Below the pieces are notes generated by a model. It was not told where the DNA came from. It did not search any database and saw nothing but the letters and a program-made list of their open reading frames with translations. The position numbers and the translations under genes are program-made. From positions 748 to 64,747 of IMG/VR virus record IMGVR_UViG_3300032288_002935: a stretch of 64,000 nt of DNA; one strand, given 5' to 3'. Origin of the DNA: a virus (Duplodnaviria; Caudoviricetes). Each line of letters starts with the position of its first letter. Position 1 is the stretch's first letter. Of this stretch, positions 7,511 through 59,404 are shown in pieces.

Positions 7511-7513
7511 TAT

Positions 7514-8838: not shown

Positions 8839-8840
8839 TT

Positions 8841-9560: not shown

Positions 9561-9579
9561 TAAATAAAATTAAAATATC

Positions 9580-21269: not shown

Positions 21270-21271
21270 TT

Positions 21272-23851: not shown

Positions 23852-23904
23852 CAATAACTAATTTTTGTTTAGCATATAATTAATATATTTACAATAAAAA
23901 AACA

Positions 23905-25740: not shown

Positions 25741-25763
25741 GCAAATAAATAAACTTTTTAATT

Positions 25764-34100: not shown

Positions 34101-35499
34101 GTCTGTAGTAAGAGCAATAAACTATGCGTTGTACAATGCTAAAGTGAAATTGACAATAGTTGAAAGCAATGCATTAACTGGTCAAGCATATAGCATTGAA
34201 GCAAGAGAAAGTGTTGCAAAAAAAGAACAACCTAAAACAAAGTTGGCTGTATCAAAAGAAATACTTTCAAATTTTGTTCATGAAAGTGGATCTATATCAA
34301 GTGAGTTATGGCAAGAAGCTTTAATTGCTGAATGGTTTTTTAACCCTGAACACAGACTTCATCCTGATTTTGTAACTAATGATATAGCCAGAGGTAAATC
34401 TGAAAAAATTGCTTATAAGAGTTTTTTATCAAATAAATCTGATGTTACCACTGCTTCTGAATTAGCTGATCAAGCTGGTCAAGATTTTCAAGATAGATTA
34501 CAAAATGCTGATATATCTTTAGTAGAAGCCGTGTCAAGACTATTTGGTGAATACACTACTATTAGTGATATGGTAAACGGTATTGCTGAAAGAATTGCAG
34601 GTCAACAAGAAGATCTTGATGCAGATTTTAATCAACAATTAGAAGATGAAAAAAAGTATAAAGAATTTTTAGCTTCAGCTTTAGCCGAAGAAGAAAATGA
34701 CAGACAAAAAGAATACATGAATTCTTTGGAATACAAAATTGAAACTGGTAATCTGGATACTGAAAATTTAGATTATAATTCTTTAACTGAATACCAAAAG
34801 TTTTTGTATGACAGAGCTGTAGAAGCAGGATGGTATCCTTCAAAAGAAAATCCATCTGAAAAGAAACCTGAACAAAAACCTATTGATTTATTTGAGGAGG
34901 GTTTAAATGAAATGGCTGCTAAACAAACTTCAATTGATAAAGAAGAAATAGCTGTTCGTACTGAGTTGAGGGAAATAAAAGATTCTTTTGATAAACAGAA
35001 AGCACTGTTGGCTAAAATTAGTGATATAAACAATGATGCTAACTTAAAGATGTTTATTGCAATTTACAAAATTATAAATGATGAGCCTGCATTAAATGTT
35101 TTTAATGAACAACAAAGAAATATTTTAAATGACAGATTAAGTAAAAGACTTAAACAAGGTGCATTTATTGGACAATCTGTTTCACTTAATGACAAAATAT
35201 TCCAGATAGTTTCTTATGATGTAAACAATCAAACTGTGGAGATTGCTGACATTAAAACAGGTGAGATGGAAATCATCCCTTTTACAGATTTTGCAAATAT
35301 CAAAGATGTTCATGAAGTAGGTCAAGAGATAACAAATTCAAAATTAAACACTGAAGTAAAAGACCAAGAAATAGAAATAATTAAAGATGCCTATAAGGAT
35401 ATTTTTAGTAATTTTACAGCTAATGTTTCTGAATATGAAACTATTGAAGATGCTGATTTAAAATCAAAAATAATTGAACAATTAACAAAATGTAAATGA
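28111..35499 (+). CDS. Giant virion protein 1 (RNAP-associated ejection protein) with hydrophobic helices and a degenerate zincin-like domain
   Basis: 2462 aa. Gly-rich hydrophobic segments (GYTVGILGAIALEEVGLALTTGGLG; FGSGFFMGSIASPFGLAIGGL), 'EGIQELGQ', and EFLSESLNNASFQKFL. The only Cys seen is at the penultimate position. Confidence 0.7.
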   Translation: MENKDVKPTRSELMKMAVSDVNIKNQKKLEDPFNAGSKIISAKQLDVDRFGTYNSQTYGKLGFDPFRDNNKFYNENTHWSEDIGRATRGMFKLAKVGFQDTFGFGVTADKDNYKNFEDVMKNYSSTRGGYTQFWANTELSSGYTVGILGAIALEEVGLALTTGGLGNIGSSGLVGAQLGKAMRNLDKLSRSSKYIDRIAELGHTDEAAKFFSYKGIGQNLAKLGEKLNPIGETANFIRQTKLDEFSDLNSLQKLSIGAGALAKDARKIYMTHSESKMEAEMARSEFKENQIQKARLASPDGKLTDADALRIETDASNVYNSTYMGNLGLIYATNALTFDNMFKSMRYSNKMFSIPGKLTTTLGKDGLLVKAVKGFTVKGAFKTGKKAVVDFSLKESSKNALGYIVKNYKVAGAKLLEKGLANSVEGIQELGQDVISNSVQSFYGRNHTGKQVRGGFLEKMYQAASDFSLQDVGEGVLNMATKVDENGNRVLNQEGLSTFGSGFFMGSIASPFGLAIGGLQNQIVGGGIKSKYQYLTNRAEYVKNQKTKYKEAAAKAKILTKIFNDNLGAYLDHTSNPLVTQTELQEEILDAAEKGDKKKFEDKKNDSFQQGVKTMLRNNSEGMFTDFLDDMASNYTPEQLNQAMGRTDITSENVASYKAKLQAKSATIKELRKVYDRVNNEVINPVRQSDIDRLDASDPEQRKEKLDLMIYKKAWDNLKDELLFNHGKIANKAQRMIELEKQLKKETDLAPTEIQALISKESLSKEIKILETQVEANKNLNLKGRDAKDAKVAEQKFEALKKYQTALAAIEKAESASKTNINDIDAAYSDLFEAYHEFRTIDEEYGNFYGTMEPEEVKRAISRKSFDAIVDYLDLKAESQALQSVVNTLVDTRSASMWVERNAEMMANLDKNKETHIANQLKAFHQQASSSEMLTELQEAGLFFDLNEIDDLVEKGIMPSQIYNIETNKPASKEEYQKAQDLISSFYKNLTGKSITQNKAVQSKTSLRYESDKRMVEDLMTQYGIELDKEMDLSDPAQLTKLIKKLKASKYLTYIDKEILDVVSDSTPKIKFTTSGEFPIEISEDGVITIDLRYAGHDYKNASVNFETLILSALTQAKLTDNLENNKALKTEVDVLMNQAKEAFAKKYPNTDVEKISMLNNTAEFLSESLNNASFQKFLGGINDTVSGTKKSLWTSLMAKIMKAFGQTFDKSVLQRAVSLANMALDENVVDSIDEKNDATETTETEEEPEPVSSVEKHGYKLMEVVPGVWQVTGKGEVKAFDTKEEAEAYFNEKAVPPTKTVKQTVKEKVTRTVTLGNTDFIKNAFERPDIFGEFLHPEVVSKNKQLVDDWTQKIVALGTELDAAGITDWNYGNVRVDIDGRLVIDVTAEVNGKQVKFLMYKSTGTGSTALSLGEWVPLIAIGTHPDGKEWFVKAYHEGQDPKFNKYGSQTFASIDQDLKNKEKELFKGKKSTQEIEEEVEREIDVEVPADTEETPEEVNQRILDEENELKNEINSRRELLKRINEQISSTSKMNLRKRIKLGNQKKDILLEIKSLQEKLDFTYGASSVISPAGSTETPGQVPVQNEPEYDLNDNVIITQNTPFLLLPYKLQEDLLEQHRMDVGATAVGAIRFKYKDLIKELESLNMAMSQAQDDELDALDEKFGEVYDKLTSQVGPNVNINLNEQGKIEVSTVKKDTDATADEIGAIESKMANDISYMRTIIEYNKSLESNEPDTTVDTTYPQDTPVLTTEEELERAKRIKQEVIDKAKETVRARRLARQKSFVPITVDERESVVDLLKKTFKDDFDILTKSELDYLVDSMLSDSKSFQFKIPDAIAFLNKKKLDLEARSQFDFINEQFSEELSKLRAEERAEAIKGYQKDIFEEMVDNRFDYNYDFIESGVKSKKIFSVTYNGKTHKFTLSPKEFRALALYNNDIFKKADSKENLLIQIHTVLRNVKYYANSYKKELKFEGTPQEVEDQLIEMYFMLGKKGVLLPSVVRAINYALYNAKVKLTIVESNALTGQAYSIEARESVAKKEQPKTKLAVSKEILSNFVHESGSISSELWQEALIAEWFFNPEHRLHPDFVTNDIARGKSEKIAYKSFLSNKSDVTTASELADQAGQDFQDRLQNADISLVEAVSRLFGEYTTISDMVNGIAERIAGQQEDLDADFNQQLEDEKKYKEFLASALAEEENDRQKEYMNSLEYKIETGNLDTENLDYNSLTEYQKFLYDRAVEAGWYPSKENPSEKKPEQKPIDLFEEGLNEMAAKQTSIDKEEIAVRTELREIKDSFDKQKALLAKISDINNDANLKMFIAIYKIINDEPALNVFNEQQRNILNDRLSKRLKQGAFIGQSVSLNDKIFQIVSYDVNNQTVEIADIKTGEMEIIPFTDFANIKDVHEVGQEITNSKLNTEVKDQEIEIIKDAYKDIFSNFTANVSEYETIEDADLKSKIIEQLTKCK

Positions 35500-35500
35500 T

Positions 35501-38500
35501 ATGAATATTTGTATTACTCCGGAGTCAATAAAGCTTTTTAGTGCTTATTTTAAAAAAGAAATTCCAAATCATTTTACAAATGAAATCTCTGCAAATGCCT
35601 TATTAAACAAACTGTTTGATAAGGCAATTTCTGATTTTAAGAACATGGGTTTAACCGAAGAGAGAACGCGTGAATTAATATTACAACATCTTTCTGTTGC
35701 ACCTCAAATTATTAAAAAATACATTGGTGAAAATCCATCTGCTAATAACCCAAAATTATTAGACAGTGTAAATCTATTAAGTGGAATAATTTATGATGCT
35801 TCTCAATCAGATAACAAAAGTGATTTTCAAAATGCAATTAATAGTCTTGGACAAATTATTGGTAAATCAACTTTGGTTATTCCAGCTGCTCCAGTGGGTA
35901 ATGATTTTAATGCAGTTTCTTTTGAACTACTTAAAACAGCTAATCAGGAAATGATTTATGAACCAGGTGTTGGCTATAGAAACAACATAACTGATCCTGA
36001 AAAACAATTTGAATTTGAAGTACAAAGAGCAATCATTGCTTCTGGTAATGCGGATAATTTACAATTAAAACTTGTACAACAAAGTGAGTTAAAAAATATT
36101 AATCAGATTAACAATACAAATAAGGATACTAATCCTGACACTTATGTTTTGGTTCCGGTTGACTCTTCAGGTAAAATTGTAAGATTTGTTGATGGAAAAG
36201 TTAATGAGGATGGCTCAACTCCTGTTTTTGTTCTTAGACAAACAATGAAAGAATTTGATTATCTGCTTAAAGAAAAAAGCGATATTTATATTTCTCAAGG
36301 AATGTCACCAGCACAAGCTTTTGCTAAAGCAAGACAAGAGATTCAAGGACATCTTGAGTTTATTGCTAATTTAAAAAAGGATCATGCAGCAGGCAAAACT
36401 GTAAACTTTTCTATTAGTCTTGCAAACAGTTTGATGGGATTAGTTGTAGAAAAATTGGATAGAAAAACAAGTATGCGTTCTATAACCAATATTGATGAAG
36501 TTCCAATTCATATTAAAAGAAAAGGTACACAAACTATAGCTGTAATGCATGTTCCTTTATCTGGTAGACAAGTTTTACCAAATGAAAAACCCATGTATGA
36601 AAATTCAATGATGGATGTTACGGATGAGGAGTTAGACATTCTTACAAAATTGATCACTGAACCTAAATTAAAAAAATCAGGAATAAAAAGAAAGACTGGT
36701 GAATCTTATATGTCTGATATGCGATTTGAAGAAAGACAAAATGCAGTTTACTTTTTTCATAGAAATGCAGAAGAATTTATTTTTTATCAGAAAAAAGAAT
36801 TTGATAAGTTGACTAAAAAAACAAAACAGTCATATTTTATTAGAATTAAAAATGAAGTAATTGAAGCTACTGCAGAAAATGCTGAACAAATTAAACAGGC
36901 TTTAAAAACTTATTTTACAACAAGATCAAGTGAGTTATATGCATATTCTACTGATTTTACAAATGTTACTCCAAAAGAATCTTTTGAAAAGACTACTGAT
37001 GTAGGTCAAGTTTTTTATGGAGAAGATGGAAGAGTTTATATAACTACTGGACCAAAAAGAAATTTAAATATTCTTAATGAAACAGATGTGGAGTCAATGA
37101 TTAATGTGCCTACTTCTGTTGTTGATGGTGTGGTTACTCTTGTATCTAAATCTATAAGAAACCATATTATTGATAACACTAAAACTACAATTATTACAAA
37201 TGGTAATAATGAGTTGAGAGGGTACTCTTCATACTTAGCTTTAGGTTATACTGCTGAAGATGCATCTGAAGCTATGATTGACGATAGTGTTGAACCATTA
37301 TTTAGAACACTGGCCGAAACTAACTTGGAAACTGAGCCAACAGAAAAACAAAAAGAAGATGCAATGACATGGTTTAAAAACCATCCATTGTTTAAAGTGT
37401 TAAGTCTTAATGAAACTTTAAGAAATAAAATTCATGAAAAAGGTCCTAGTTTTGTTGCTGAGTTTGTAAATAGCTCAATCAATTTGTATTTAGGTTCTAA
37501 CAACACGGATATATACCATGAAGCTTTCCATGCTTTTACTCAATCTATTTTAACTTCACAGGAAAGAAAAGCAATGTATTCTGAGATAGCTAAAACTCCT
37601 GGTACATTTAAAGTAACAGTGCTTGGAAAAGCTAAGACTGTTAAATTTTCTGAAGCCAATGAGCTTGAGATAGAAGAATACTTGGCTGAAAAATTCAGAG
37701 AGTATTCAATGAATCGCGGTAAGTCAAAATTATCTGTAAGAATAAAACAGTTTTTTGATAAAGTATTAAATATGCTTCAGGGTATGTTTGGTAAAAACAT
37801 GACATACAATGAAGCAATTGCTCTTAATAAATCAGCAGGTGTTGTAAACAACATGTTTAATGCTTTGTATGAAGGAAATATTGATATTAGCAAATTCAAT
37901 CCTGAAGCAACAAAAACTGCTTTGTATAAATCAACAGAGATTAATTTTCCAGATGTAGATTTTTCAATTGAACAAATAAGTGTTTTAATGGAATCTATGC
38001 AATCACTTATGAGTGATTTTATTAATCTTGGTATTAATGGTTCAAGCAATAGAAAAGTAAATACACTTGTTGTAAATTTATTATTAGAATCTTCACAGGT
38101 AAAAGTTGATTCTAAAAGACACAAGAAAATTTTTGAGGAAATTGACAAGTTAAATAAAAGCCATGGTGTAGTTAATGGCTATGGTGCATTTGCAATTGCT
38201 AAAAATCCTAAAATTTTAGAACTTGCTCTTACTTATGTTAAAAACAGATTGGAGCAACAAAAGAAATTAATGAAGCCTCTTTCTAAAGATGATGATGGTT
38301 TTGCATTAGACACATTGACTAAAGCTTTAAAAGCATTTGGAGATGTAACTGAACCTAAATTATACTTAGATGAAGCTGAGAATTCAAACTTAATAAGTTT
38401 GTATTTAAATAACTACAGTAATATTAATGTTCAACAAGAAACATTAGATTATTTTGATAGCCTGGATGATGTAGAAAGAGGTATTAAATTTACATTTGGA

Positions 38501-41500
38501 TTAACAGGTACTGAACAATCATTGGCTGAAGTAACTGATGAGCAAACTAGAGAAATGCTTAGTACTATTCATGCACATGCAAACAATGGTAAAGGTGCTA
38601 TATTAGTGAATTCATTAGGTATTAAAAAAGTACAACCATTTATTCAGATGCTTGCTAAAACAAGTAAGATATTACGCAACACTACTGATAGAGTAGAGAT
38701 GTATAATAAATTAATGGCTGCTGCTAAAACTGATTATGAGATTGCTCAAATTGTAAACAAACTTGGTAACATTAATAATCCTGAAATTACAACTGAGGAA
38801 CAAAAAGCTTGGTTGAATTTTTGGCAGGTAATGAATAAAACAGATTTGTTCTTAAGAGAATTTATTATTGAGAAAGTTGTTGATACAGATAGAAAAACTA
38901 AAGAGAAAACAGCAACTTTAGAAGCAAGATCAGGTAGATCTAAATCTGCAGAAAGCAGAGTTGGAAAAGACTGGGCTGACAATTTTGTGTTTGTTTCTCA
39001 CAATAGCCCTTACTTTAGTGAAACTAAAGATGGTGAAGCTTATTTAAAGTTTGATAAAGATTCTCAAAAATATGATCTGGTAGAAGATTATGAAGAAAAA
39101 GGATTTGGATTGATTTCAGGAACTGAAGATAGTCCTGAGTTCATTACAAGTTTAGATGAAAGAATTAATAAAACTGATGTTTATACAGGTAAATTATTCA
39201 AAGCATCTGCTAATCCTTTTGAGTTTTTAAATCATATTGGTATTGACTTAGTTCAAGATCCGGTTGTATTAGATATTTTACTTAATGGTCATGCTGGTTT
39301 AGATATTCAAACTGGTATTGTTGACAACATCATGAAATCATTAATGAATAGACAAACGGCTGTTAATGAAAATAATAAAAAAGTAACTGAACTTTCTCAA
39401 TTATTCAGTGACTTTGAATACATAAATGCAAATGGAGAAAAAGTTAAACAAGAAGGTTTAAATGGTTGGTTCAATCAATTGCAGAAATTACAATACATGT
39501 TCTCTGATGAAAACTCAAGTTCAATGGGTAAAAATGCTGAAGGAGAAAACCAAAGTGAAAAGTCATATAACTCTTCATTGAGTATGATGGTTACTGCTTT
39601 GAATGATGCTAAACACTATGATGAAATTTTAGAAGGTTCTGGATTAGAAATTTTTAATGTTAAAACAAATCCATTTGCAGCGGCTTCTCCTTGGTTAGTA
39701 AACATGTTTAATTTGGAATCTCCAAATGCTGCTGTTAGAGGTACAAGGAATAAGAACTTTAAGATAACAGTTGAAAGTTTATCAGGTTCTAAAATTATTT
39801 ATCAGAGTGAGGATAAAGGTGTATCTACACTTGGTCTTGATGAGAAAGCTAAATTTTTAAGTGACTTTCATTTAACGCTAGAAGGTAAACAAGAAATTTT
39901 AAGAACAGCTGACAAATCTACATCTTTAACTGCACATGCTCCGGTAAACAAGAATGGAAGAATTATTAAAAATGAATTAGAAGTCACTAAAGAAGATATA
40001 AATAAAATATTTTCTCCTGAATATGATGCAAATAAAAATTCTACAATTTTATATGATCAGTTTTTTAGACACATTGAAGCGGAACTTGTAAGAATTTCTA
40101 GAATGAATGACATTACTGAAGATTTAGAATCTGAAGGTGAGATTGTTTTTGATGCAGCTTATTTAAAAAGAGGCCGTGACTTTTACATGTTTGCAAATAT
40201 TCTTACCCCAGCTACAAAAAAAGCATTATTAGAACTTAAAATTTCAGACTCTCAATCTGCAGACATTAATAACACTAGAGTTCTTAATAAACTTATCAGT
40301 GCTGAATTTAAAAAGGTAATTGACAAAGAAATAAAAGCTTATTTTGAAAAAAGAAGTGATGGTTTATTTAACAGAAAAAATAAATCTTTAGTCATTGCTG
40401 GTTCTGCTCTTAAAACTTTTCAAAAAAATTCTGAAGAGGAAGAAGATGTTACAAGAAAAAGAATGTTTAGAACATTTACTATAAACAACTTTATTCAAAA
40501 TGCAAATTTTGCTACATTGTTTATTGGTGATGCAGCTATACATGATGTAAGAGGAGAAGGTTATCATAAACGTATTGCAGGTTTAATTTCAACTGGTAAA
40601 ATATTTGCTAATGATTCTGCATTCTTAGCACATGTAAACAACCCAAACTTTAATGCTTTTGGTTTTGCTGAGAAACATAACAATGCTATTACAGGTAGAA
40701 CTTATAACGGTTATATTAACTCTGCTGTTATTAAAGAAAAGAAATCAGTATCCGCATACTTGCAACAATACTCAGAACTAATTGATGCAAAAGATTATGG
40801 TGCTGAAAATAAAATGAAAGAAGCAGATGGTGCTGGTTGGATTTCATTTGACATGTACAGAATTTTAAATTTAGCATGTGGTGAGTGGAGTGACCAACAA
40901 GAAACTTTGTATAACAAAATGCTTGCAGGTGAAAAAATTTCTGAAGAAGATGCTAAGATTACTTTTCCAGTTAGAAAGTTTCAATACTATGGACAGGTAA
41001 ATAATAAAGATGCTACTTACAATTTACAGATGATGGCTTTTCATAAGTATTCTTTAATGCCATTGATACCATCATTGATAAAAGGAACACCTTTACAAGA
41101 TCTTCATGAAAGTATGTTAAAACAAGGAGTGGATTATGTTACTATGGAATCTGGTTCTAAACTTTCTTCAATTTCTAAAGTTGAAATGAAAGATGGAAAA
41201 GTTGTTTCAAAATTTGATGACTTTTATGATGATGAAAGAAAAACAAATGACATTGAGTTTACTGTAAATCAAATACACTCAAAGTATTTAAAAAATCAAA
41301 TTTATTTAGCTCCTGGTTATAAAAATCATATTACTTTACCTACTCAAAAAAGAAAGATGATTGCTCTTGGTTTGTTCAATGATGAGCAAATACCAACAGA
41401 TTTTAAACCAAATCTTTCTAAAGATGAAAGAAAAATTAAATGGGAGTCACTTAAAACTGATTCTAAGAAAAGAGCAGCTTCTAAGAATTATGACTGGTAT

Positions 41501-44500
41501 AAAAGATATGAGGTAGTTATTTCTAAAATACAGGCACATCTTAAACAAGAACTTATTGATGACTTAGGTTTAAGTTATGGAGCAGATGGTTCATTAAGCG
41601 GTAGTCCTGAAAAACTTGTTGCTTATTTAGAGAAGCAAATGAAAAGCAATGACATGTTAGCTGATGATATTGAATACATCACCAGTGTGTCTGTAAATGC
41701 TGAAACATTAGATTTTTCATTATCAATGTATAGTGAAAAAATTGAAGCAATTTTAATGACTCTTGCTGATAAAAAATTAAGAGCATTAAATGTTAATGGT
41801 GAAGCTTTGGTACAAGTACCAGGAACTATGTTTGAAAATAAGAAAAGAGCTGAAGAATTTGCAAAAATTGAAAAACCTACGCTTAAAGATATTCATGAGT
41901 ATGGTTCAAATGGATTATCTTTCTACCATGTAACTGATAAAAATGGTGATCCTGTTTTAACTAAAGACACTAACAGTTGGATTGTTAAAAGCATGGAAGT
42001 TAAAATTTCTTTGCAGGGAGATTTTAAAAAATTACTTTATTTGAAGCATCCTGATGGTAAAAAAATTGCTGTTTATAGTAAAGATGCTGAAGGCAAAAAC
42101 ATTTTAGATTATGATGAATCTCTTGCAAGATTAAATGAATCTATTAAGAACACTGAATGGAAAACTAAATACAGTAAATTTTTAGAAATTGCGGGGGATC
42201 GTATTCCATCTCAGGGACCAAATGCATTGGAGTCAATTACTGTTGCAGAATTCTTACCTGAATGGGCTGGTCCAATTATTATATTACCAGCGGAGATTGT
42301 TGCTAAAGCAGGATCAGATTATGATATTGATAAATTGTTTACTCAGTTTCCAAACATTGTTAAGATTGGAAATAAGATTGAATTGCAACAATACAGATCT
42401 GATGTTACAAAATCTTTAAAAGAACTGTATGCTGAGAAATCTTTTATTGTTGATGAGTTAAAAGATGTAAGAAGTGAAATAGATGCATTGTATGAACAAA
42501 GAACTAATTTCTTTGAAGCAAGTGATGACATTGCTACAGAAGTTAAAAATCAAATTAAGGAGCAATATAATTTAGATAAAGATTTATATAAAACTCGCAG
42601 TGAATTAACAGGATTTTTAAAAGCAGCTGAAAATGGATTATGGAAATTTAAAAACATTCCAATTAAGCAAAGAGCTAAATACATTGCTCAGTATGAAGAA
42701 CAAATGGATGCAGTAAATGAGCTAATTGATTTTCAAGAAGAGCAGCTTAAAAAAATATTATTTGAAGAACTTGGTGTAGAAAAAGCATCTGATTTCTTTA
42801 AATACAGTGATGATTTAATTAAATCACAAAAACAAAAGCAAACAGAACTGCAAAATGAATTAGAAGAAATTCAAAGAAAAATATATGGTAAGTCAATTAA
42901 AGGATTAGAAAATGAACTTTTAAGTTTATTTGCTGAGAAAATTTTAATGCCTGCAAGTATTAAAGATTTGATTACAACTAACTCTACAGATATTGCTTTA
43001 CCTGTAGCTCAACAATTAGAAGAAATTATTAGAAAAAGAGATTCTGAAACAAGATTTAATAAATATGACAGAATAACTGATGAGAATGGAGATGGTATTT
43101 CTCCAACTACACTTTTTGATTATGAGTATAACTTATTAAAACACCAGGAGAATTCTGTTGGTAAAGACTCACTTGGTATAGCAGCTGTAACAGCAACCTA
43201 TTATGCAATGTTCCAAACTTTTGGTGCTAAGTTAAATGCTGTATCTCAAAAAGAACAAACTGATTTTGATGAAGCTATGGTTGTTGTATCTAAAGTAGCA
43301 GATATTAATTATCAAGTTGAACAAATAAAAGAAGCTAATAAAGACAATATTACTCCTGAAATTCAAAAACAAATTTCTTCTTTGCTTAAATTGCTTCCAA
43401 GAGCTGATAAAATTGAAACAGCTAACAGCACTGTAAACAGATTTAAAAATTATACATTTAAGTTAAATCACAATAAACTTAAATCTGAGTTAGGTGAACA
43501 TATTGCTTTGGGTATTATTAACAACACTAAAGGTCAATCCATTTCAGATTTAATTTCTCAAATGATTAATGGTTATGTAGATGTTGCTAAAGATGCTTGG
43601 GTATTCAACATGCAAGGAAATAAACAAAACACTCCGACATTATTATTTATGATAATGGCAGGTGTTAGTTTAGAGAGTGCGGCTTATTTATCTTCTACGC
43701 CTTTGGTTATGGAATACAACCAGATTAAAAAAGAATTAAGTGGAGTTTATGCAAACTTAGGACTAGATCCTGAAATGAGTCCAATAGTTGAAACTCAAAG
43801 AATAAACAAAAAAGCTCAAGAAAAATTATTTGAAAATCATGAACAGGAGTTTAAAGCAAATGGATTAGAAACTTTTAATTACAACAGTATTGCTAATAAA
43901 AATGCAAGTGAGTTTACTGAATCTGAATTACTTGGTTTGGTTAAACAAAAAGCAATTGATATGCGTCAAATCCAGGCATTAGCTGAATACATACACATTG
44001 AAAAAATTGCAAGTGATGTTTCTAAATTCCAACAACTTACAAGATTTGATACAAATAAAATTGCTACAATTTCTGAGGCACAAAAAAGAAAAGAGGATAT
44101 TCTTGAATTTATTTCAAGAAAAACTTATGTTCCTCAATCATGGTTCTCTGCTGAAGGAATTGGTAATACACCTGTAGGACAATTTAATAATGATGAGTTT
44201 TTGGTTAATTTATTTGAAAGATATTTCAGTTTAAGAGATAACCCTGCATTGGTAAAAACATCATTAGACAAAGTTATTAAAGACAACAAACCAAAAACAG
44301 TTGTTGATGTGGTAATGAGAACAGATTTTAAAAATGATTTTATTTGGTTTTTATATCAAAATTCATTGTTTAAAAAGAATACTTATGATGGATACACATT
44401 TAAAGTTTTAAGTGATCCTAAAGCTGAATTCAGTATTAATGAAGAAACTAAAGTTGTTACATTTAGCAGCAATATTTTAGGAAATGATATTAATAATCCT

Positions 44501-47233
44501 AAGTTAGGATTAAGTCACATGATGCATAATTTTCCAACAGCTGATCAATATGTAAGATTTAAAATTGAGTTGAGCAAATTAGAAAATGAAGATGCTTATA
44601 AACTAAGAAAAGAATATTACTTCTTGGATAATGCAAAAAATAAAGTAACTGACTTGTGGTTAAAAAATAAAATTGCATTATACAAATCAAGAAATCAAAT
44701 AGCTTATTTCTATGGTCCAACCAGTGTAGGAAACATGTTTAAAAGATTTAAACAGGAGCATCCTGATTTGGCTAAGAAATATGCCATCATTAGAGATATG
44801 AAATTCAGCAATGATAAAAAAACATATAAATCTAATATGTATCTTCCTGATATTTCAGATGTTAATTTAAGAAAGCAATATAAAGAAAATCTTGCGGATC
44901 TTAAAAATGATATTGCTAGACCTGAAATAGCTGAGTTTTTTGGATTGTTTAACAATATTGCAATGATGCAAACTGGAGTTAATAGAAGATCGCAATATGA
45001 CCTTGGTAAAATCATTGACGCAGACCATCTGCATAATGTAATTGATAATGGAATTGGTATTGGTAAAATCATCAATGAATTAAATCAAATAAATGACAAT
45101 ATTGAAGCAGCTAGAATACATAATTTAAATAAAGACAATGCACCAATGATTCCTGATCTTCAGTTATTAGATCAGTTTAAAGAACTATTCATTGGTATGA
45201 TGGAATCTAGTTACAAAACAAGAGTAAGAGGATACAACTATGAAGTTCAAAATTTGAATTTTGGTAAACATAAAGAGCTTGGTGAAACAATTTCATCATT
45301 TAATAATGTGGTTGTTTTAAATTCACTTGTTGGTGCACCTAAAGATAGATTAGCATTAACAGCTTCATTATTTTTTGATGAAGATGGTGAATACACTCCT
45401 GAAGAATTTGCTGAATCAATTAAAGATGAAAAAATTGCAATCTTAAATAAAAAACTTGTTGCTCCTGCTGGAGAAGACCAAGCAAAATTAGATAAGTTGC
45501 TACTTGATTATTTAGGTATAAACAATTCTGGAAACTTTCCAATCTTAGAGTATAAATCTAAAACTGTAAAAGAAGGATTTTTATCTATTGCTGGTTTAGG
45601 ATTAAAATTAATGCCTGAACATTCTGTAAAAGATGAAGCAATGGCTAATGCTTCTACAGTTGCTATAGGTCAAGCTACTATTGTAAATCCTAATGCAATG
45701 TCTTCAAGTCAAAATTATGTAGATGAATTAACTGCAAAGTATCCAGGAAAACTTGCTGATTCAAAAACTAAATTTAAATCAACAGATAAAGTTTGGGTTT
45801 TTGGTAGTGGTGTATTTGCAAGCAGAATTAAAAATGTTACAGTTGAAGAGTTTGATATTGCATTAAATAAAACATTTGATACATATCATAAACCTGCTAT
45901 AAACAAAGCAATTAAAGCTGGTGTTAAAACATTTAATGTAGGTACTGCTTCAGGTATTGATAAAATGGCTTCAGACTATTTAGAATCTCAAGGTTATATT
46001 AAAGTTCCTATGTATGCTCCTATTGGTAAGTATTATGAAATGCGTAAAAGTGATTCATCATTTGAAGATTTAAACTATGATAACAATGCTGTTGTTGTAA
46101 ACAAAGATACTTTAGAGGCAGGTGATTTAATGAGTTTTTTATTTAATGACAATAAAGCAAACAACTGGTATACTAATTTAAGTGAAAAACAAAAATTTGA
46201 GAAAGGTGTTTCTGTTGTTTATGATAAAATTGTAAATCAGTTGAATAAAAATACTATGTATAAAATTCAATTTGGTAATAGACTAGTTGCTCAAAAAGGT
46301 CAAATTAAAATTGGTGACTCTCCATTGTCAGCTGCAATTGAGCAAGCTCTTTACAAAATGAGAAATGATATAATTAATCATAGACAATCTAAATCTGTAG
46401 CAGCACCAGTTGTTAATCAGCCGTTATCATTTGATATGGAGATTGGTTCATTTGTTAAATACCAAGGTTCAACTTATATCATTACTCAGTTTAATGATAA
46501 CGGAACAGTTCAGATTTATAATCCAACATTGGAAGGTGCTTCTGCAAAAATTCCTGTTGCTAAAAGAAATTTAGAAGTTTTGAGCAGCAAAGCTAAAATT
46601 GTAAATTACAAAGACACAGATTACATTGTTACACCAAAAGGAACAATTATTTCATTGACATCAAATAAAGCTATGAACTGGGCTGAAAATGATGGAAACC
46701 GTGTAGCAATTTTAGAAAAAGCTAAAGCAAGATCTAATCAATCATTTGCTAGTGTTAAAGTAATTGCTACAAGTATTCCGCAAAACAGAATATCTGGAAT
46801 TGAATCCATGGGTTCTACACAACAAGCTGCAGCAAATGTAAAACAAGTATTAGGAAGTTCTCCTCATTCTATTGATATGATAGATGCTGATTTTAGAACT
46901 AGAACTACAAGAAGTGTAGGTGAAATGCAAAAATATCAAGTTAAAGTTGGGGATATAGTAATTCAATCAGGAAAGTCTTCTAATGGTTTGATTAAAAATA
47001 TTTTTACAAAAATAACTGCTATACATCCTAAAGGAACTCCGGGTTATTTAGGAACATGGAATAAAGAAGGTTGGTCACAAGAAGGTATAACTGAAATAGA
47101 AAGATATAAAAATGGAGCTGCTGCAATTGAGTTCGAAGTAATTAGATATACTGGAACTATGCCAATAAAAGAATTCTTATCTTTACCTTTGGAGAAACAA
47201 ACAGTCATAATCGAACAACAATTAAAATGCTAA
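35501..47233 (+). CDS. Giant virion-packaged DNA-dependent RNA polymerase (single-chain double-psi beta-barrel, phi14:2 gp66-like) with zincin and accessory domains
   Basis: 3910 aa. Catalytic GSDYDIDK (DYDID at 42317-42331) is preceded by RIPSQG (42200). Also EADGAGWIS (40820), 'KRIAG', 'NGYVDVAKD', and the HExxH motif HEAFH (37517-37531) with a downstream EEYLAE. Confidence 0.9.
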   Translation: MNICITPESIKLFSAYFKKEIPNHFTNEISANALLNKLFDKAISDFKNMGLTEERTRELILQHLSVAPQIIKKYIGENPSANNPKLLDSVNLLSGIIYDASQSDNKSDFQNAINSLGQIIGKSTLVIPAAPVGNDFNAVSFELLKTANQEMIYEPGVGYRNNITDPEKQFEFEVQRAIIASGNADNLQLKLVQQSELKNINQINNTNKDTNPDTYVLVPVDSSGKIVRFVDGKVNEDGSTPVFVLRQTMKEFDYLLKEKSDIYISQGMSPAQAFAKARQEIQGHLEFIANLKKDHAAGKTVNFSISLANSLMGLVVEKLDRKTSMRSITNIDEVPIHIKRKGTQTIAVMHVPLSGRQVLPNEKPMYENSMMDVTDEELDILTKLITEPKLKKSGIKRKTGESYMSDMRFEERQNAVYFFHRNAEEFIFYQKKEFDKLTKKTKQSYFIRIKNEVIEATAENAEQIKQALKTYFTTRSSELYAYSTDFTNVTPKESFEKTTDVGQVFYGEDGRVYITTGPKRNLNILNETDVESMINVPTSVVDGVVTLVSKSIRNHIIDNTKTTIITNGNNELRGYSSYLALGYTAEDASEAMIDDSVEPLFRTLAETNLETEPTEKQKEDAMTWFKNHPLFKVLSLNETLRNKIHEKGPSFVAEFVNSSINLYLGSNNTDIYHEAFHAFTQSILTSQERKAMYSEIAKTPGTFKVTVLGKAKTVKFSEANELEIEEYLAEKFREYSMNRGKSKLSVRIKQFFDKVLNMLQGMFGKNMTYNEAIALNKSAGVVNNMFNALYEGNIDISKFNPEATKTALYKSTEINFPDVDFSIEQISVLMESMQSLMSDFINLGINGSSNRKVNTLVVNLLLESSQVKVDSKRHKKIFEEIDKLNKSHGVVNGYGAFAIAKNPKILELALTYVKNRLEQQKKLMKPLSKDDDGFALDTLTKALKAFGDVTEPKLYLDEAENSNLISLYLNNYSNINVQQETLDYFDSLDDVERGIKFTFGLTGTEQSLAEVTDEQTREMLSTIHAHANNGKGAILVNSLGIKKVQPFIQMLAKTSKILRNTTDRVEMYNKLMAAAKTDYEIAQIVNKLGNINNPEITTEEQKAWLNFWQVMNKTDLFLREFIIEKVVDTDRKTKEKTATLEARSGRSKSAESRVGKDWADNFVFVSHNSPYFSETKDGEAYLKFDKDSQKYDLVEDYEEKGFGLISGTEDSPEFITSLDERINKTDVYTGKLFKASANPFEFLNHIGIDLVQDPVVLDILLNGHAGLDIQTGIVDNIMKSLMNRQTAVNENNKKVTELSQLFSDFEYINANGEKVKQEGLNGWFNQLQKLQYMFSDENSSSMGKNAEGENQSEKSYNSSLSMMVTALNDAKHYDEILEGSGLEIFNVKTNPFAAASPWLVNMFNLESPNAAVRGTRNKNFKITVESLSGSKIIYQSEDKGVSTLGLDEKAKFLSDFHLTLEGKQEILRTADKSTSLTAHAPVNKNGRIIKNELEVTKEDINKIFSPEYDANKNSTILYDQFFRHIEAELVRISRMNDITEDLESEGEIVFDAAYLKRGRDFYMFANILTPATKKALLELKISDSQSADINNTRVLNKLISAEFKKVIDKEIKAYFEKRSDGLFNRKNKSLVIAGSALKTFQKNSEEEEDVTRKRMFRTFTINNFIQNANFATLFIGDAAIHDVRGEGYHKRIAGLISTGKIFANDSAFLAHVNNPNFNAFGFAEKHNNAITGRTYNGYINSAVIKEKKSVSAYLQQYSELIDAKDYGAENKMKEADGAGWISFDMYRILNLACGEWSDQQETLYNKMLAGEKISEEDAKITFPVRKFQYYGQVNNKDATYNLQMMAFHKYSLMPLIPSLIKGTPLQDLHESMLKQGVDYVTMESGSKLSSISKVEMKDGKVVSKFDDFYDDERKTNDIEFTVNQIHSKYLKNQIYLAPGYKNHITLPTQKRKMIALGLFNDEQIPTDFKPNLSKDERKIKWESLKTDSKKRAASKNYDWYKRYEVVISKIQAHLKQELIDDLGLSYGADGSLSGSPEKLVAYLEKQMKSNDMLADDIEYITSVSVNAETLDFSLSMYSEKIEAILMTLADKKLRALNVNGEALVQVPGTMFENKKRAEEFAKIEKPTLKDIHEYGSNGLSFYHVTDKNGDPVLTKDTNSWIVKSMEVKISLQGDFKKLLYLKHPDGKKIAVYSKDAEGKNILDYDESLARLNESIKNTEWKTKYSKFLEIAGDRIPSQGPNALESITVAEFLPEWAGPIIILPAEIVAKAGSDYDIDKLFTQFPNIVKIGNKIELQQYRSDVTKSLKELYAEKSFIVDELKDVRSEIDALYEQRTNFFEASDDIATEVKNQIKEQYNLDKDLYKTRSELTGFLKAAENGLWKFKNIPIKQRAKYIAQYEEQMDAVNELIDFQEEQLKKILFEELGVEKASDFFKYSDDLIKSQKQKQTELQNELEEIQRKIYGKSIKGLENELLSLFAEKILMPASIKDLITTNSTDIALPVAQQLEEIIRKRDSETRFNKYDRITDENGDGISPTTLFDYEYNLLKHQENSVGKDSLGIAAVTATYYAMFQTFGAKLNAVSQKEQTDFDEAMVVVSKVADINYQVEQIKEANKDNITPEIQKQISSLLKLLPRADKIETANSTVNRFKNYTFKLNHNKLKSELGEHIALGIINNTKGQSISDLISQMINGYVDVAKDAWVFNMQGNKQNTPTLLFMIMAGVSLESAAYLSSTPLVMEYNQIKKELSGVYANLGLDPEMSPIVETQRINKKAQEKLFENHEQEFKANGLETFNYNSIANKNASEFTESELLGLVKQKAIDMRQIQALAEYIHIEKIASDVSKFQQLTRFDTNKIATISEAQKRKEDILEFISRKTYVPQSWFSAEGIGNTPVGQFNNDEFLVNLFERYFSLRDNPALVKTSLDKVIKDNKPKTVVDVVMRTDFKNDFIWFLYQNSLFKKNTYDGYTFKVLSDPKAEFSINEETKVVTFSSNILGNDINNPKLGLSHMMHNFPTADQYVRFKIELSKLENEDAYKLRKEYYFLDNAKNKVTDLWLKNKIALYKSRNQIAYFYGPTSVGNMFKRFKQEHPDLAKKYAIIRDMKFSNDKKTYKSNMYLPDISDVNLRKQYKENLADLKNDIARPEIAEFFGLFNNIAMMQTGVNRRSQYDLGKIIDADHLHNVIDNGIGIGKIINELNQINDNIEAARIHNLNKDNAPMIPDLQLLDQFKELFIGMMESSYKTRVRGYNYEVQNLNFGKHKELGETISSFNNVVVLNSLVGAPKDRLALTASLFFDEDGEYTPEEFAESIKDEKIAILNKKLVAPAGEDQAKLDKLLLDYLGINNSGNFPILEYKSKTVKEGFLSIAGLGLKLMPEHSVKDEAMANASTVAIGQATIVNPNAMSSSQNYVDELTAKYPGKLADSKTKFKSTDKVWVFGSGVFASRIKNVTVEEFDIALNKTFDTYHKPAINKAIKAGVKTFNVGTASGIDKMASDYLESQGYIKVPMYAPIGKYYEMRKSDSSFEDLNYDNNAVVVNKDTLEAGDLMSFLFNDNKANNWYTNLSEKQKFEKGVSVVYDKIVNQLNKNTMYKIQFGNRLVAQKGQIKIGDSPLSAAIEQALYKMRNDIINHRQSKSVAAPVVNQPLSFDMEIGSFVKYQGSTYIITQFNDNGTVQIYNPTLEGASAKIPVAKRNLEVLSSKAKIVNYKDTDYIVTPKGTIISLTSNKAMNWAENDGNRVAILEKAKARSNQSFASVKVIATSIPQNRISGIESMGSTQQAAANVKQVLGSSPHSIDMIDADFRTRTTRSVGEMQKYQVKVGDIVIQSGKSSNGLIKNIFTKITAIHPKGTPGYLGTWNKEGWSQEGITEIERYKNGAAAIEFEVIRYTGTMPIKEFLSLPLEKQTVIIEQQLKC

Positions 47234-47237
47234 TAAT

Positions 47238-50200
47238 ATGTTTTGCGTAAACACTTCACATCCACAATTTAAAGCTCTGTTAGAACAAACAGAGCTTCAT
47301 CCTGATTTATTAAAAGCAGAAGTTAGTATCTGGATGGACCAAAATAATTCTGATTCTTTTCCTACAGTTGAGGAATTACAGTTAGCAAAAATTGCAGAAC
47401 AAGAAAGAACAATTGATCCGTTAGCAGAATGGTTAGATGAATTTGATTCATTTGAACCAGTATATGAAAATATACCTGAAGAGGGTTTGATTGACAATTT
47501 TTATAGTGATATTGCTGAATGGGAACATCCAACTGATAAAGATCAGACATCCGTGTTAGATGATTTCACATTATTTAATTTAATGAATAATCCATCTGTT
47601 CCAATTTCAAAAGAGAACAAAGCAAAACTTAAACTTCTTTCTAAAGTTGTAGGTGAAAAAGAAGCTTATAGAGATTACTTTGAACAGAATGAAGTAGTAA
47701 GACCAGGCAGTGTTGTATTAGATAAGTTAGATGAAAGATATACAGAACTTCCTGAAAATGTTTTTGAAGAAACAACTGAGGAAGATGCTTTATTAGAACA
47801 AGATTTAATCAAAGATATTGAAAACATTGTTAAAGCTGAGAATTCTAAAATTGCATTAGATAAAATTCAAAAACTATCTAATCAGTTAGGTATTGAGGCA
47901 GAAATAATTTCTTCAGAAGATTTAGAAAAAGATTTTGGTATTACACAAACAGGTGTAAAAGCATTTTTTAAAAATGGAAAAGTTTATTTGGTTGATGGTC
48001 TTTTTGATGAGAATGTAGTATTCCATGAATTTTGTCATCCAATTATTAAATCTATAGCAAAAGAAAATCCTGAGTTATTCTTATCATTATATGAAGAGGT
48101 TTTAAAAACTCCGGAAGGTCAAGAGTTATTTAAATTAATATCTACAAAGTCAACTGATTATGCAGTTAATTCTCCTGAATTTATGGAAGAGATAATTGTA
48201 AAATCATTAGATGAAAAAAATAGAATTAAAAAATCTACAATTCAAAACATACTCTTTCATATAAAACAATTTTTGAGAAAGATGCTTGGTAAGAAAATCA
48301 ATATATCTAAACTAGATGCTAATACACCTTTGATAGATTTATTGAATATGATTAATGAGGGAGGAGAATTTATTTTAGATAAAGATTTTCTTAATGCAAG
48401 TGATGCAATAATGTTTGATAGAGAATATCAAGATGCTGTAGATATTATTGCAAAGGACTCAGCTGTAGCAACACAATTGATTATCAATGACTACTACAAC
48501 ATGATTTCAACTCAACTTGGAAACCTTCTTAAAGATGAAAGTATCTACAAAAATTTAAAAGAAGATCTTACCACTGAAAATTTTGATGGAGAATTACAAG
48601 TTCTTAGAAAAATGTTAGATGCATTAACAACATCTGATAAAACTAAGATGGCAAATTTACCATTATCAACTGTTGAAAAACAAGATTTTGAATTATTCCA
48701 GGATAGATTAAATGCTTTTGTTAACACACTTGTACAAGGAGGGAAAGTAGTAGAAAAATTTGATAAAAAAATTAATGACCTTATTAATAATGGGGTTGAA
48801 ACAAATGATGACTTTGATGCATTATTTGCTTTAGAAACTTATGTAAATGATTGGAATAAATTTATAACTGCTCTTAAACAATCAAAAACAATTATACAAT
48901 CTAAAACTGGTTCTACACCAGAAGTAATGCTACCTGTTAGTTATTTAGATATTAATAATCCTATTGGTTTAAAAATTGCAAGTCTTGGTTCTCAAATTAA
49001 CTTGGTATCTGAAAAAATAAACAATTTAAAAATTAAATCAACTACTGATTTACTTTATAAAAACTTAGAAAAAAGATATGAAGGGATAAGCAATACTTAT
49101 CTTAAAGGCATGCAAGCTGCACAAGATGCAGGTGATTTAGCTCAGTATGATATAATGCATGAAGATTACTACGGTTTGACTTTAGAAGAGATGAACGAGA
49201 TGAATTTTTTAAAAACTCAGCCGTCTTCTGTTGAAAGAGATAACCGCTTAAATTTTTTAAATGATAAATATTTAGGAGGAAGAGAAGCTAAAAGAGATGC
49301 TATTGAAGCAACTTTAAAAAATCAATTGCAAGATTCCACATGGATGAATGGAATGTTTGAATCTTACATGAATAATCAAGATAAAATTGTAGGTAATTTT
49401 GCTGATTATGTAAATTCTTTTTTACAGGATGTAGCAGGTAATGTTAATGCAATTGAAGCTGATTTCTTGGAAGGCCTTAGACCATTACTTAAAGAAGCTG
49501 GATTTAATAATTCAATTTTTGGAGAAGCTAAATTAGGTAAAGCTATTCAACATACTAATGTTACTTATCAAAATGATAAAGATGGAAATGTTGTTGAATT
49601 TGAAGAGTATGCTTTCATTAGTAATTTCACTGGACATGAATATGAAAAAGCAAAACTTGAACAACTTGTAAGAAGAGCTAAAGAAAAATGGCAATCAACT
49701 GCAGATGATGCAGATTTTACGGCTTATATGCAAACTGAATTTGATTTAGAAGATTTTTTAATTGATTACATGCATCAAGCTAACATTCCTGAATACTATA
49801 AACCAGCCATGGTTTTTAGAACTCCTGTTGGAATGGAAGCAAAAAAAATGAGAGATGATATTTTTGAAGAGATGCGTCTTCAAAGAGCCAACTTTGATAA
49901 AGATCCAACAAGTTTAGCACCGGCAGATTCTATAAAAAAATTATGGTTTGAATATCAACAACTTCAAAGTCGCTATGATTTAAATGGAGATCTTAAAACA
50001 AATTCTTATGTTGATGCTAATGGTAATACAGTTATTACAAATGATTTAGCAATTGCTGAAGTGTTTCAAGAGTATGCTGAAAAAACAAAAGATTTTCATG
50101 AGTATGAGGAAATTCCAAATTTGTTTGATGATCAATTAGAAGCTTTTGAAAATTACTTAATCAATGTAGAGAATTTAACAAAAGGTTCAGTTGCTTATGA

Positions 50201-57604: not shown

Positions 57605-58912
57605 TTAATTAATTTTTAAATACTTGTTATTAGTAACTTCTACTTTGCATTTAGCTCTTGTAATAGCTGTATAAAACCATTTTGCTGCATCCCATACTGG
57701 CATAAGCCATCCTGCATCAATGTAAACATTGTCCCATTCTTGACCTTGAGCTTTATGACAACTAATTGCATAACCATAAGTGGAAATTGTTATATCTTTA
57801 TTAAAGAAATATCTAGTTTTACCATTACGCGGAGTGTATTCACTTACAAGTAGTCTGTATAAATTATCAGGAATTGAGTTATTTCCTTCTCTGATTGCAT
57901 CTACAATTTGTTTGCCGTGCATTGATGCTTCAACTAAATCTGGAATAAGTAATGTCATTTGTCCATCATGCCTGTATATTAACATTTTGTATTTTTTTAT
58001 TTTATCATCTCTGGTTTCTACACTGAGATCAAAGTCATGCATAAGCATTGCATTTTTTAGCTTATAAATCTCTCCGTTTGAATACATTGATGAGTTTGAT
58101 ACAGATACAATGATGTCACCTTCTTGCGCATAACCTGTAATAGTCTTGTTGCTGAACAAGTAAGCTCTGATCTTTTCATTGTATTGAACTCTTCTTTCAT
58201 TAGTTGATGTAAGAACTACATAATTACCATCTGCTTTTATGTCTTGTGCAAGACTTTTACTAAATTTTGGTACTGATGTAAGATCTGATTGCTCTGGTTG
58301 CTTAAATGATGCTTTTTTACAGGTCCTAATGTCTGTTGCAATCTTTAACAATGAACCATCATATCTTTTAACTTCAGTTAATTCATATCTGTTATGAGGT
58401 AAGAAGTTTTCAGGATAGCTTTGTTCCCAATTAAAAATCTTCGGATCATCTCCTACTGGTTCCAATTGGAAACTATCTCCCATGAATATAATCTTACATT
58501 TTTTTTCAATTGCTTGCTTCATTAATACCTCAAGGACATACTTATCAATCATTGAACATTCATCTACAATATAAGTACCTCTAACTTTAAGTGTTTTGTC
58601 TACAAAAAATGTATTCTTTTTGTCACCAGCTGAGAATAATGCTGAGTGAATGGTACTAAAAATTAATGCCGGATTGTCAATTTTTTCTTTTAATCTGTTT
58701 ACTGCTGCATTTGTTGGTGCAAGTAGCGAGGCTCTAGTAGCATTTGCTATGTTTTCTGCAATAGTTGTTTTACCACAACCTGAGTAGCCTGCAAGCAAGA
58801 AGAATGTATCTTCTGTTTGTAGGAATTTAAACACTTTGTTTAGTGCTTGTTTTTGGCCATCTGTAAAATCTATTGCCTTTTTTCTGGCATTGAATAAGTC
58901 ACTTAATGTCAT
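57605..58912 (-). CDS. dda: Dda/RecD-like SF1B DNA helicase (probable own start at ATG 58912, in frame with the upstream HNH)
   Basis: Walker A GYSGCGKTT, LAPTNAA, TIHS, IVDECSM, GDSFQLEPV, LTEVKR, YAISCHKAQGQEW and YTAITRA. Confidence 0.88.
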   Translation of the reverse strand: MTLSDLFNARKKAIDFTDGQKQALNKVFKFLQTEDTFFLLAGYSGCGKTTIAENIANATRASLLAPTNAAVNRLKEKIDNPALIFSTIHSALFSAGDKKNTFFVDKTLKVRGTYIVDECSMIDKYVLEVLMKQAIEKKCKIIFMGDSFQLEPVGDDPKIFNWEQSYPENFLPHNRYELTEVKRYDGSLLKIATDIRTCKKASFKQPEQSDLTSVPKFSKSLAQDIKADGNYVVLTSTNERRVQYNEKIRAYLFSNKTITGYAQEGDIIVSVSNSSMYSNGEIYKLKNAMLMHDFDLSVETRDDKIKKYKMLIYRHDGQMTLLIPDLVEASMHGKQIVDAIREGNNSIPDNLYRLLVSEYTPRNGKTRYFFNKDITISTYGYAISCHKAQGQEWDNVYIDAGWLMPVWDAAKWFYTAITRAKCKVEVTNNKYLKIN

Positions 58913-59389: not shown

Positions 59390-59404
59390 TTGCTTTGTGT
59401 TAGC

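Follow-up and report, generated by a model that had tools for sequence, protein, structure and literature searches.

Three consecutive giant genes of a phage that we assign to the crAss-like group encode proteins that are nearly free of cysteine, and most of the few cysteines that they do contain lie at the protein ends that face one another in gene order. The genes are found in a stretch of DNA of 64,000 nucleotides (nt), hereafter the window, that spans positions 748 to 64,747 of the IMG/VR virus record IMGVR_UViG_3300032288_002935. The record is 64,747 nt long with an estimated completeness of 53%, and the window makes up most of it. We call the first and last proteins P1 and P3; the middle protein carries the core of a virion RNA polymerase (RNAP). 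Comparisons with related proteins and genomes strongly support the placement of cysteines at facing termini as a sequence rule that is neither a product of chance nor special to this phage. We consider it probable, with some reserve, that each C-terminal cysteine is joined to the N-terminal cysteine of the next protein by an interchain disulfide, which would create a polyprotein-like chain that is ejected and then reduced in the host.

Cysteines of the three giant proteins

All three genes lie on the plus strand. P1 (2462 amino acids [aa], positions 28111 to 35499 in the list of open reading frames [ORFs]) ends in the tail IIEQLTKCK* (35470 to 35499, plus strand), where its only cysteine, residue 2461, is encoded by TGT at 35491-35493. 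The RNAP protein (3910 aa, 35501 to 47233) has cysteines at residues 4, 1793, and 3910. The first of these belongs to the head sequence MNIC (codon TGT, 35510 to 35512) and the last to the tail IIEQQLKC* (47207 to 47233, codon TGC at 47228-47230). P3 (2034 aa, 47238 to 53342) carries cysteine 3 in its head sequence MFC (codon TGC, 47244 to 47246). Its only inner cysteine, residue 266, is part of a zincin-like HEFCH motif (residues 263-267, 48024 to 48038, plus strand), in which H263, E264, and H267 are invariant in an alignment of relatives (alignment A2). The positions of the terminal cysteines had been listed in an earlier note on this DNA, and both a script and direct reading agree with every one of them.

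The same note had put the number of cysteines in the combined 8406 aa at about six, with four at facing termini. By script count and direct reading, the number is exactly six (0.07%), and four of these are no more than four residues away from the four facing termini of P1, RNAP, and P3. The window has 26 other ORFs of 150 aa or more, and these contain 203 cysteines in 11,494 aa (1.8%). The binomial probability that at least four of six cysteines would fall among the 16 positions within four residues of the facing termini is 2e-10. As had also been noticed, the outer ends (the N terminus of P1 and the C terminus of P3) are free of cysteine. The three proteins show no significant mutual similarity by blastp (best E value, 0.077), in agreement with the earlier impression that they are otherwise unrelated.

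Conservation of the cysteine pair at gene breaks

The expectation that the terminal cysteines would recur in homologues is borne out. Origins overlap among the database proteins, both sets of IMG/VR loci, and part of the named genomes described below, and the tallies are not independent samples; two of the database proteins (P0062 and P0094) are the window's own. In the P1 family, 45 of the 46 homologues have exactly one cysteine, located 0-6 residues from the C terminus. This amounts to 45 cysteines in 117,694 residues, with none elsewhere than at the C-terminal end. Every one of the 29 RNAP homologues has a C-terminal cysteine 0-4 residues from its end, and all 24 unfused full-length members have one at position 4-5; across the 25 relatives in alignment A1, C3910 of the RNAP is invariant and C4 nearly so. 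Among 61 P3-family proteins, which reach down to 22% identity, 58 have a cysteine in their first nine residues. It is the sole cysteine in 47 proteins of about 1900-3200 aa, and C3 of P3 is invariant in the 51 sequences of alignment A2. The three remaining proteins are taken to be truncated at the N terminus: an alignment shows this for P0037, and P0030 and P0052 are so classed by their length and start. Inner cysteines have a frequency of at most 0.02% across the homologue families.

Genome loci give the same picture at the level of junctions. The 80 IMG/VR loci collected around P3 relatives include 7 that could not be assessed, 3 that are fused or apparently fused, and 70 split junctions, and both cysteines are present at 69 of these 70. 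The 77 loci collected around RNAP relatives have both cysteines at 50 of 51 junctions between P1 and RNAP and at 52 of 52 junctions between RNAP and the next protein. The earlier note had also drawn attention to a shared IIEQxxKC tail. This motif is indeed present at both window tails, but it does not hold more widely: its strict form occurs in only 5/29 RNAP and 4/46 P1 homologues, and phi14:2, crAss001, and p-crAssphage have other tails. A looser pattern (hydrophobic-hydrophobic-E-x-x-x-K/N-C) is found in 16/29 RNAP and 23/46 P1 homologues. Judged from these sequences, the IIEQxxKC tail is a clade-specific feature and not a general one.

We also examined 15 named genomes: phi14:2, crAss001, DAC17, IAS, cr108_1, p-crAssphage, crAss002, Rudgehvirus, cr8_1, cr50_1, cr10_1, cr1_1, cr113_1, cr7_1, and Flavobacterium phage FpV4. 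Both cysteines are present at all 19 junctions in these phages, or at 21 of 21 in 16 genomes when the window is included. The upstream cysteine lies 0-10 residues before the C terminus and the downstream cysteine at position 2-6. When the 10 terminal residues of the outer ends are inspected with the window counted, no cysteine appears at any of 16 N termini or at any of the 15 C termini that are readable.

The simplest case is phi14:2, where gp67 (1797 aa) has a single cysteine as its last residue, gp66 (2180 aa) has cysteines 3 and 2179, and gp65 (1421 aa) has only cysteine 3, such that all four cysteines in 5398 aa are at facing termini. In crAss001, the only cysteine of gp47 is residue 2339 of 2341, gp50 has cysteines 5, 1334, and 2404 in 2412 residues, and the only cysteine of gp49 is residue 5. 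The layouts of DAC17 and IAS virus are as in crAss001. Members of the Intestiviridae (p-crAssphage, crAss002, Rudgehvirus, and cr8_1) have two genes, the second of which encodes the RNAP fused to a P3-like part. Here the tail of gene 1 ends in cysteine plus one residue and the head of gene 2 reads M-x(1-3)-C. For crAss002, this fit is obtained only if gp33 starts at an MSC that is located 32 codons inside the annotated start. The in-frame ATG in question (locus L008, 15088-15186) yields the head MSCTPSNPKL, which matches the N-terminal pattern of the family, and the annotation probably begins the gene 32 codons too soon. In the Suoliviridae (cr50_1, cr10_1, cr1_1, cr113_1, and cr7_1), cr108_1, and FpV4, a first protein of 3765-5443 aa ends in cysteine and is followed by a P3 with the head M-x(1-3)-C. 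From its length and the position of the RNAP core, this long first protein is taken to be a fusion of P1 and RNAP.

The position of the break relative to recognizable domains differs between lineages. In crAss001 gp47 (position 2157 of 2341), p-crAssphage, crAss002, and Rudgehvirus, a domain with the zincin-like motif HEAFH precedes the break. The same domain lies after the break in the database homologue P0084 and in the window RNAP, where the motif occupies residues 673-677 in the N-terminal part of the protein (37517 to 37531, plus strand) and is conserved in the alignment. Likewise, P3 proteins of one lineage (L003, P0033, and P0034) start at a point that matches residue ~120 of the window P3, and the head is still M-x-x-C (MAVC in L003).

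Fusions provide the converse observation. The P1+RNAP fusions P0087-P0090 have no cysteine at the internal junction, and P0087 and P0089 contain a single cysteine in 4856 and 4153 aa, respectively. FpV4 gp32, whose fusion status comes from length and RNAP-core position only, has one cysteine in 4287 aa and, near its end, an HEVIH motif that may mark a shifted second break. Six loci with frames open at the 5' end looked like fusions of RNAP and P3. One of these, L075, was shown to be a fusion, two (L062 and L064) are apparent only, and the other three (L042, L045, and L068) are in fact long P3 proteins cut by a short flank. The L075 fusion has no cysteine in 2728 aa, and a short linker replaces about 40 C-terminal and about 90 N-terminal residues of its split relatives, which have the tail ...YNSCKL* and the head MSKC.

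Breaks that arise in other ways lack the pair. In cr108_1 (MT774385; L019, 17371-17689), a group I intron (RF00028, 80 bits, E value of 8e-21) splits the RNAP at GSD|YDIDK, and there is a cysteine on neither side. The record annotates the halves as separate hypothetical proteins. Another locus, L130, has an in-frame stop within the RNAP and no cysteine pair. Because pairs are present at shifted breaks but absent in fusions and at the break made by an intron, the sequences indicate that the cysteine pair belongs to the gene break and not to a domain, and that the breaks are non-homologous between lineages.

In some loci, a small link protein (180-368 aa) is encoded between the RNAP and P3. All four distinct examples have exactly two cysteines, of which the first is at position 3-5 and the second ends the protein. 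These link modules may be a detached N-terminal domain of P3, although the comparisons are suggestive only. By hhalign, a link module aligns with the N-terminal domain of P3 at a non-significant E value of 0.11, with the C-terminal end of the module falling on P3 residues 94-119. A profile of P3 residues 1-135 gives 15.5 bits for the module of L037 (reached by 0 of 500 shuffles), 7.0 bits for L027 (5 of 500), 3.4 bits for L003 (22 of 500), and no score for L030. A profile of the P3 N terminus from the window clade had no match in the named phages.

A proposed disulfide-linked chain and its alternatives

In other lineages, the module takes the form of one colinear array whose division into two, three, or four genes falls at differing points. 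Its proteins are kept nearly free of cysteine, and one cysteine is retained at each terminus that is turned toward a neighboring protein. In the proposed chain, disulfides would form once the particle meets an oxidizing setting and would yield a near-linear pseudo-polyprotein, P1-S-S-RNAP-S-S-P3, with side stubs no longer than about 10 and 5 residues. This chain might then pass N-to-C, as one strand, through the portal and tail, like the fused polyproteins found elsewhere, and reduction in the host cytoplasm would cut it into its parts. The near-absence of other cysteines would fit a need to avoid stray cross-links.

A broader version, which we hold more tentatively and would place a little short of even, treats the terminal cysteines as protein "sticky ends." Any break in the array would be mended by a C-to-N disulfide, the array would be ejected as one strand, and the links would be undone by host thiol reductases. 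Under such a scheme, a protein with only a C-terminal cysteine would start the chain, two-ended proteins (RNAP and link modules) would extend it, and a protein with only an N-terminal cysteine would end it. The resulting thread would exceed 0.6-0.9 megadaltons (MDa), and the host thiol reductases would also time the activation of the RNAP.

A disulfide appears to be the best fit because no further metal ligand is conserved beside the cysteines, lysines flank them, disulfides are present elsewhere in the particle, and the junctions would be near-linear. Lysine precedes the C-terminal cysteine directly in 32 of 62 unique tails and follows it directly in 28 of 62, and a flanking lysine favors the reactive thiolate. 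The disulfides that the main text of PMC10172136 describes for the crAss001 virion involve the tail hubs and rings as well as gp57. A predicted complex of the C-terminal 200 aa of the RNAP with the N-terminal 400 aa of P3, each given its own alignment, had a median score of 0.28 (below the mark of 0.32) and an uncertain fold of the partner, and it speaks neither for nor against binding.

Several observations weigh against the disulfide-linked chain. First, there are exceptions to the rule itself. The P1 homologue P0123 has no cysteine, the odd junction among the loci around P3 relatives (L076) has an upstream tail without cysteine and a head cysteine only at residue 21, and the odd P1-RNAP junction (L164) lacks the head cysteine and has an A10 run exactly at the junction. 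In L164 (~270-290), the zero frame ends in ...KKNRC*, and a shift of one base produces a continuous fused frame without a head cysteine; the A10 run may be an assembly error or a site of programmed slippage. Second, inner cysteines are numerous in some proteins (13 and 13 in cr7_1, 8 in p-crAssphage gp44, and 10 in IAS gp056), and their tolerance weakens the case that stray cysteines must be avoided. Third, the cargo proteins are not resolved in the crAss001 maps presented in the main text of PMC10172136, and the gp66 biochemistry in the main text of 10.1101/2020.03.07.982082 was all done in dithiothreitol (DTT) or tris(2-carboxyethyl)phosphine (TCEP). Recombinant gp66 alone is active in DTT according to that same text, and therefore the link is not needed for catalysis. 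Fourth, assembly of the virion occurs in a reducing cytoplasm and phages of the gut live without oxygen, which leaves the time and place of any oxidation in question. Finally, within one phage of the window clade the tails are alike (hydrophobic-hydrophobic-E-Q-x-x-K-C), as are the heads (M-x-x-C-I/V-T/N), and thus sequence alone does not enforce the order 1->2->3. Other topologies, including homodimers, RNAP rings, and P1-(RNAP)n-P3 chains, are possible.

The C-to-N linkage put forward in the earlier note stands in part. It draws support from the comparative pattern of facing ends, moved breaks, fusions, and link proteins, whereas the likeness of tails and heads leaves room for other topologies. 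The disulfide or metal chemistry, fixed stoichiometry, ejection order, and release by reduction that the note attached to this linkage are inferences beyond the sequence pattern. The alternative that survives best, which we nonetheless consider unlikely, is that the cysteines do form disulfides but not head to tail. They could instead make homodimers (P1-P1 through the C termini or P3-P3 through the N termini), join the RNAP into rings or concatemers, or tie the cargo to portal or capsid-interior proteins that would hold it in place until ejection. This arrangement would accommodate the similar tails of P1 and RNAP and the similar heads of RNAP and P3 in the window clade, the several cargo copies per virion that the main text of PMC10172136 estimates for crAss001, and the single terminal cysteines without an obvious facing partner in p-crAssphage gp47, crAss002 gp30, Rudgehvirus g49, FpV4 gp30, and cr8_1 protein 20. 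However, it fails to explain why cysteines are present at facing ends only (outer ends, 0/16 and 0/15), why both cysteines are lost jointly in fusions, and why link proteins have a cysteine at each end. Furthermore, phages with two genes hold exactly one C-terminal and one N-terminal cysteine.

Less probable still is that the facing cysteines share a metal ion (zinc or iron, perhaps with two chains joined via four cysteines) and form no disulfide, an option that the earlier note had raised beside the disulfide. Paired cysteines at docking ends would produce the same pattern in either case, and 9 of 54 unique P3 heads in the window clade have a histidine five residues past the cysteine. When heads and tails are compared across lineages, however, no further ligand is conserved, and two thiolates alone make a poor zinc site. 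A metal bridge also would not outlast unfolding and threading as a covalent link would.

We regard it as very improbable that the cysteines act as the switch known from the pro-peptides of matrix metalloproteases, in which a thiol would cap the zinc of the HExxH domains and keep them latent in the virion. The window chain does have two HExxH motifs, each several hundred residues or less from a terminal cysteine. Yet there is no HExxH motif in any of the three DAC17 or IAS proteins or in crAss001 gp49 and gp50, all of which keep their terminal cysteines, and P1+RNAP fusions retain the zincin-like domain without a nearby cysteine. In addition, one zinc requires one thiol and not a pair.

We give almost no credence to the idea that the cysteine codons are a nucleic-acid or translational signal, such as a bypass element like that of T4 gene 60 or a start-context element, even though the window codons match within each junction (both are TGT at junction 1, at a distance of 19 nt, and both are TGC at junction 2, at a distance of 16 nt) and the stop codon adjoins the first cysteine codon or comes one codon after it. 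In crAss001, DAC17, and IAS, P1 is antisense to the RNAP gene and kilobases away from its start but keeps its single C-terminal cysteine, and this opposite orientation rules out a DNA-level signal as a general explanation. Among the Intestiviridae, the genes are separated by 72-170 nt, and L052 has a gap of 154 nt. Moreover, each gene downstream starts at an ATG of its own, 1-4 codons ahead of the cysteine, and the cysteine codons vary synonymously (TGC then TGT in L002). Programmed bypassing of the T4 gene 60 type, which involves close sites on one mRNA in one orientation, was rejected. A split intein with trans-splicing, which would need conserved blocks beyond the junction cysteine, was likewise rejected, with only 0-10 residues after the C-terminal cysteine, 1-5 before the N-terminal one, and no conserved asparagine before the head cysteine.

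Related systems and genomic setting

The module most like that of the window is the Crassvirales virion module (gp67/gp66/gp65 in phi14:2 and gp47/gp50/gp49 in crAss001), which has a homologous RNAP and giant genes grouped in the same way behind the tail genes. The window lineage differs from it in having its first break elsewhere, at a non-homologous place, and in its larger proteins. Proteins of the Crassvirales module have been found in virions and are thought to be ejected, according to the main texts of PMC10172136 and 10.1101/2020.03.07.982082, and some phages fuse all three proteins into one polyprotein (main text of 10.1101/2020.03.07.982082). For crAss001, the main text of PMC10172136 argues that passage through the tail constrictions requires at least partial unfolding of the cargo and that the cargo protein gp45 leaves N-to-C. 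The tail and portal-vertex proteins of crAss001 indicate that such particles use intermolecular disulfides, but these occur between folded structural proteins that are visible in maps and not at cargo ends.

Phage N4 offers a useful comparison, as it also ejects a giant virion RNAP with helper proteins that are extremely poor in cysteine. Its gp50, gp51, and gp52 contain no cysteine in 4294 aa and therefore none at a terminus, and its RNAP is of an unrelated type. The absence of cysteine from N4 ejection proteins indicates that depletion is general for ejected proteins and that the terminal pairs are special to crAss-like phages.

By analogy, the closest known principle to the proposed mechanism is the interchain disulfide at the nick of AB toxins. 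In these toxins, which include the clostridial neurotoxins and diphtheria toxin, an interchain disulfide bridges the nick, and the tethered cargo crosses a narrow channel unfolded and is freed by cytosolic reduction. Two cysteines flank a chain break in both systems. Unlike the toxins, where one precursor receives a proteolytic nick, the phage proteins are encoded by separate genes with their own ATG and have fused relatives without the cysteines. There would also be two to four giant links, and the conduit would be a phage portal and tail.

The earlier note knew of no description of such a mechanism, and none was present in the literature searched. The word "cysteine" does not occur in the main texts (excluding supplements) of PMC10172136, 10.1101/2020.03.07.982082, and PMC7886860. 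"Disulfide" is absent from the main texts of the latter two and is used in that of PMC10172136 only for the tail and gp57. No prior description of the terminal-cysteine rule was found in the searchable literature, which excludes Yutin et al. 2018, the journal version of the phi14:2 study, and supplements. Extended Data Tables 2 and 3 of PMC10172136, which according to its main text cover disulfides and the coverage of reduced and non-reduced samples by mass spectrometry, may bear on the claim.

How about 0.7 MDa of RNAP-associated protein per copy is stored and ejected through a narrow tail is an open question for crassviruses. The rule, which spans phages from marine Cellulophaga phages to human-gut crAssphage, turns a simple property of sequences into a concrete candidate architecture, namely, a disulfide-linked pseudo-polyprotein. 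If true, this architecture would explain the free exchange of fused and split gene layouts in Crassvirales, the near-absence of cysteine from the cargo, and a possible way to deliver the parts together and in order. The broader sticky-end version, if true, would represent a general and evolvable means to split and rejoin giant proteins and would place a redox switch at the first infection step of the most abundant phages of the human gut. The rule also has practical value, since it marks the true protein ends in giant genes that are hard to annotate (such as the crAss002 gp33 start) and helps to distinguish a real gene break from an intron, a recoded stop, or a frameshift error.

The assignment of the middle protein derives from its similarity to known polymerases. 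By tblastn, RNAP residues ~1660-2285 match phi14:2 gp66 (E value of 1e-7), cr108_1 (E value of 5e-21), Rudgehvirus, and IAS, and further similarity is transitive, by blastp through the database homologues P0088-P0090. The catalytic DxDxD motif is found in GSDYDIDKL (42311 to 42337, plus strand; D2273, D2275, and D2277), and GSDYDIDK (residues 2271-2278) is invariant across the 25 relatives in alignment A1. By these similarities, the middle protein is identified as a Crassvirales-type virion RNAP, that is, a two-barrel enzyme like phi14:2 gp66. Sequence searches of Pfam, PHROGs, and PDB returned nothing usable for the three giant proteins, the RNAP had no direct phmmer match to PDB chains, and megablast found no match among phage records.

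Genes upstream of the block encode tail-fiber-like and virion proteins, and a DNA polymerase and a helicase are encoded downstream on the opposite strand. The place of the giant genes after the tail genes fits the gene order of the Crassvirales virion module, and their products are putative virion proteins. Because of the RNAP similarity, the invariant catalytic motif, and these neighbors, the genes for P1, RNAP, and P3 are assigned as the transcription and ejection module of a crAss-like phage. Directly upstream of P1 are four proteins of 985, 859, 611, and 778 aa (18312 to 28100, plus strand) with 0, 0, 2, and 0 cysteines, none of which is terminal. From their position and the gene order of crAss001, these proteins are likely to be further cargo that lies outside the cysteine-linked chain.

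Other proteins in these genomes also have terminal cysteines. Several smaller cargo-like proteins that are encoded upstream of the giant genes in the named phages have a single cysteine near one terminus (p-crAssphage gp47, crAss002 gp30, Rudgehvirus g49, and FpV4 gp30), and neither these nor cr8_1 protein 20 has an obvious facing partner. In the first three, the cysteine either has an R-C-G-G context or is close to the C-terminal end. The cysteine is at position 5 in FpV4 gp30 (MKKKC) and in cr8_1 protein 20 (MTKKC), the latter of which has four more cysteines inside. The records of several Crassvirales (L007, L012, L018, and L019) annotate thioredoxin-like proteins close to the giant genes but on the other strand, and a tie between these neighbors and the redox state of the cargo is speculation.

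Elsewhere in the window, PHROG matches place both an HNH endonuclease region (N-terminal, residues ~16-130) and a Dda-like helicase (190-611) in a single ORF at 57605-59446 on the minus strand. The tail-fiber-like ORFs upstream (2501-11052) are the opposite of the cargo genes in that they are rich in cysteine (2.5-7%), and several of them (at 5542, 6317, 8212, and 9580) have clustered cysteines within the first 14 residues. These clusters may be disulfide- or metal-stabilized ends for fiber docking, like the disulfide-stabilized fiber hubs of crAss001.

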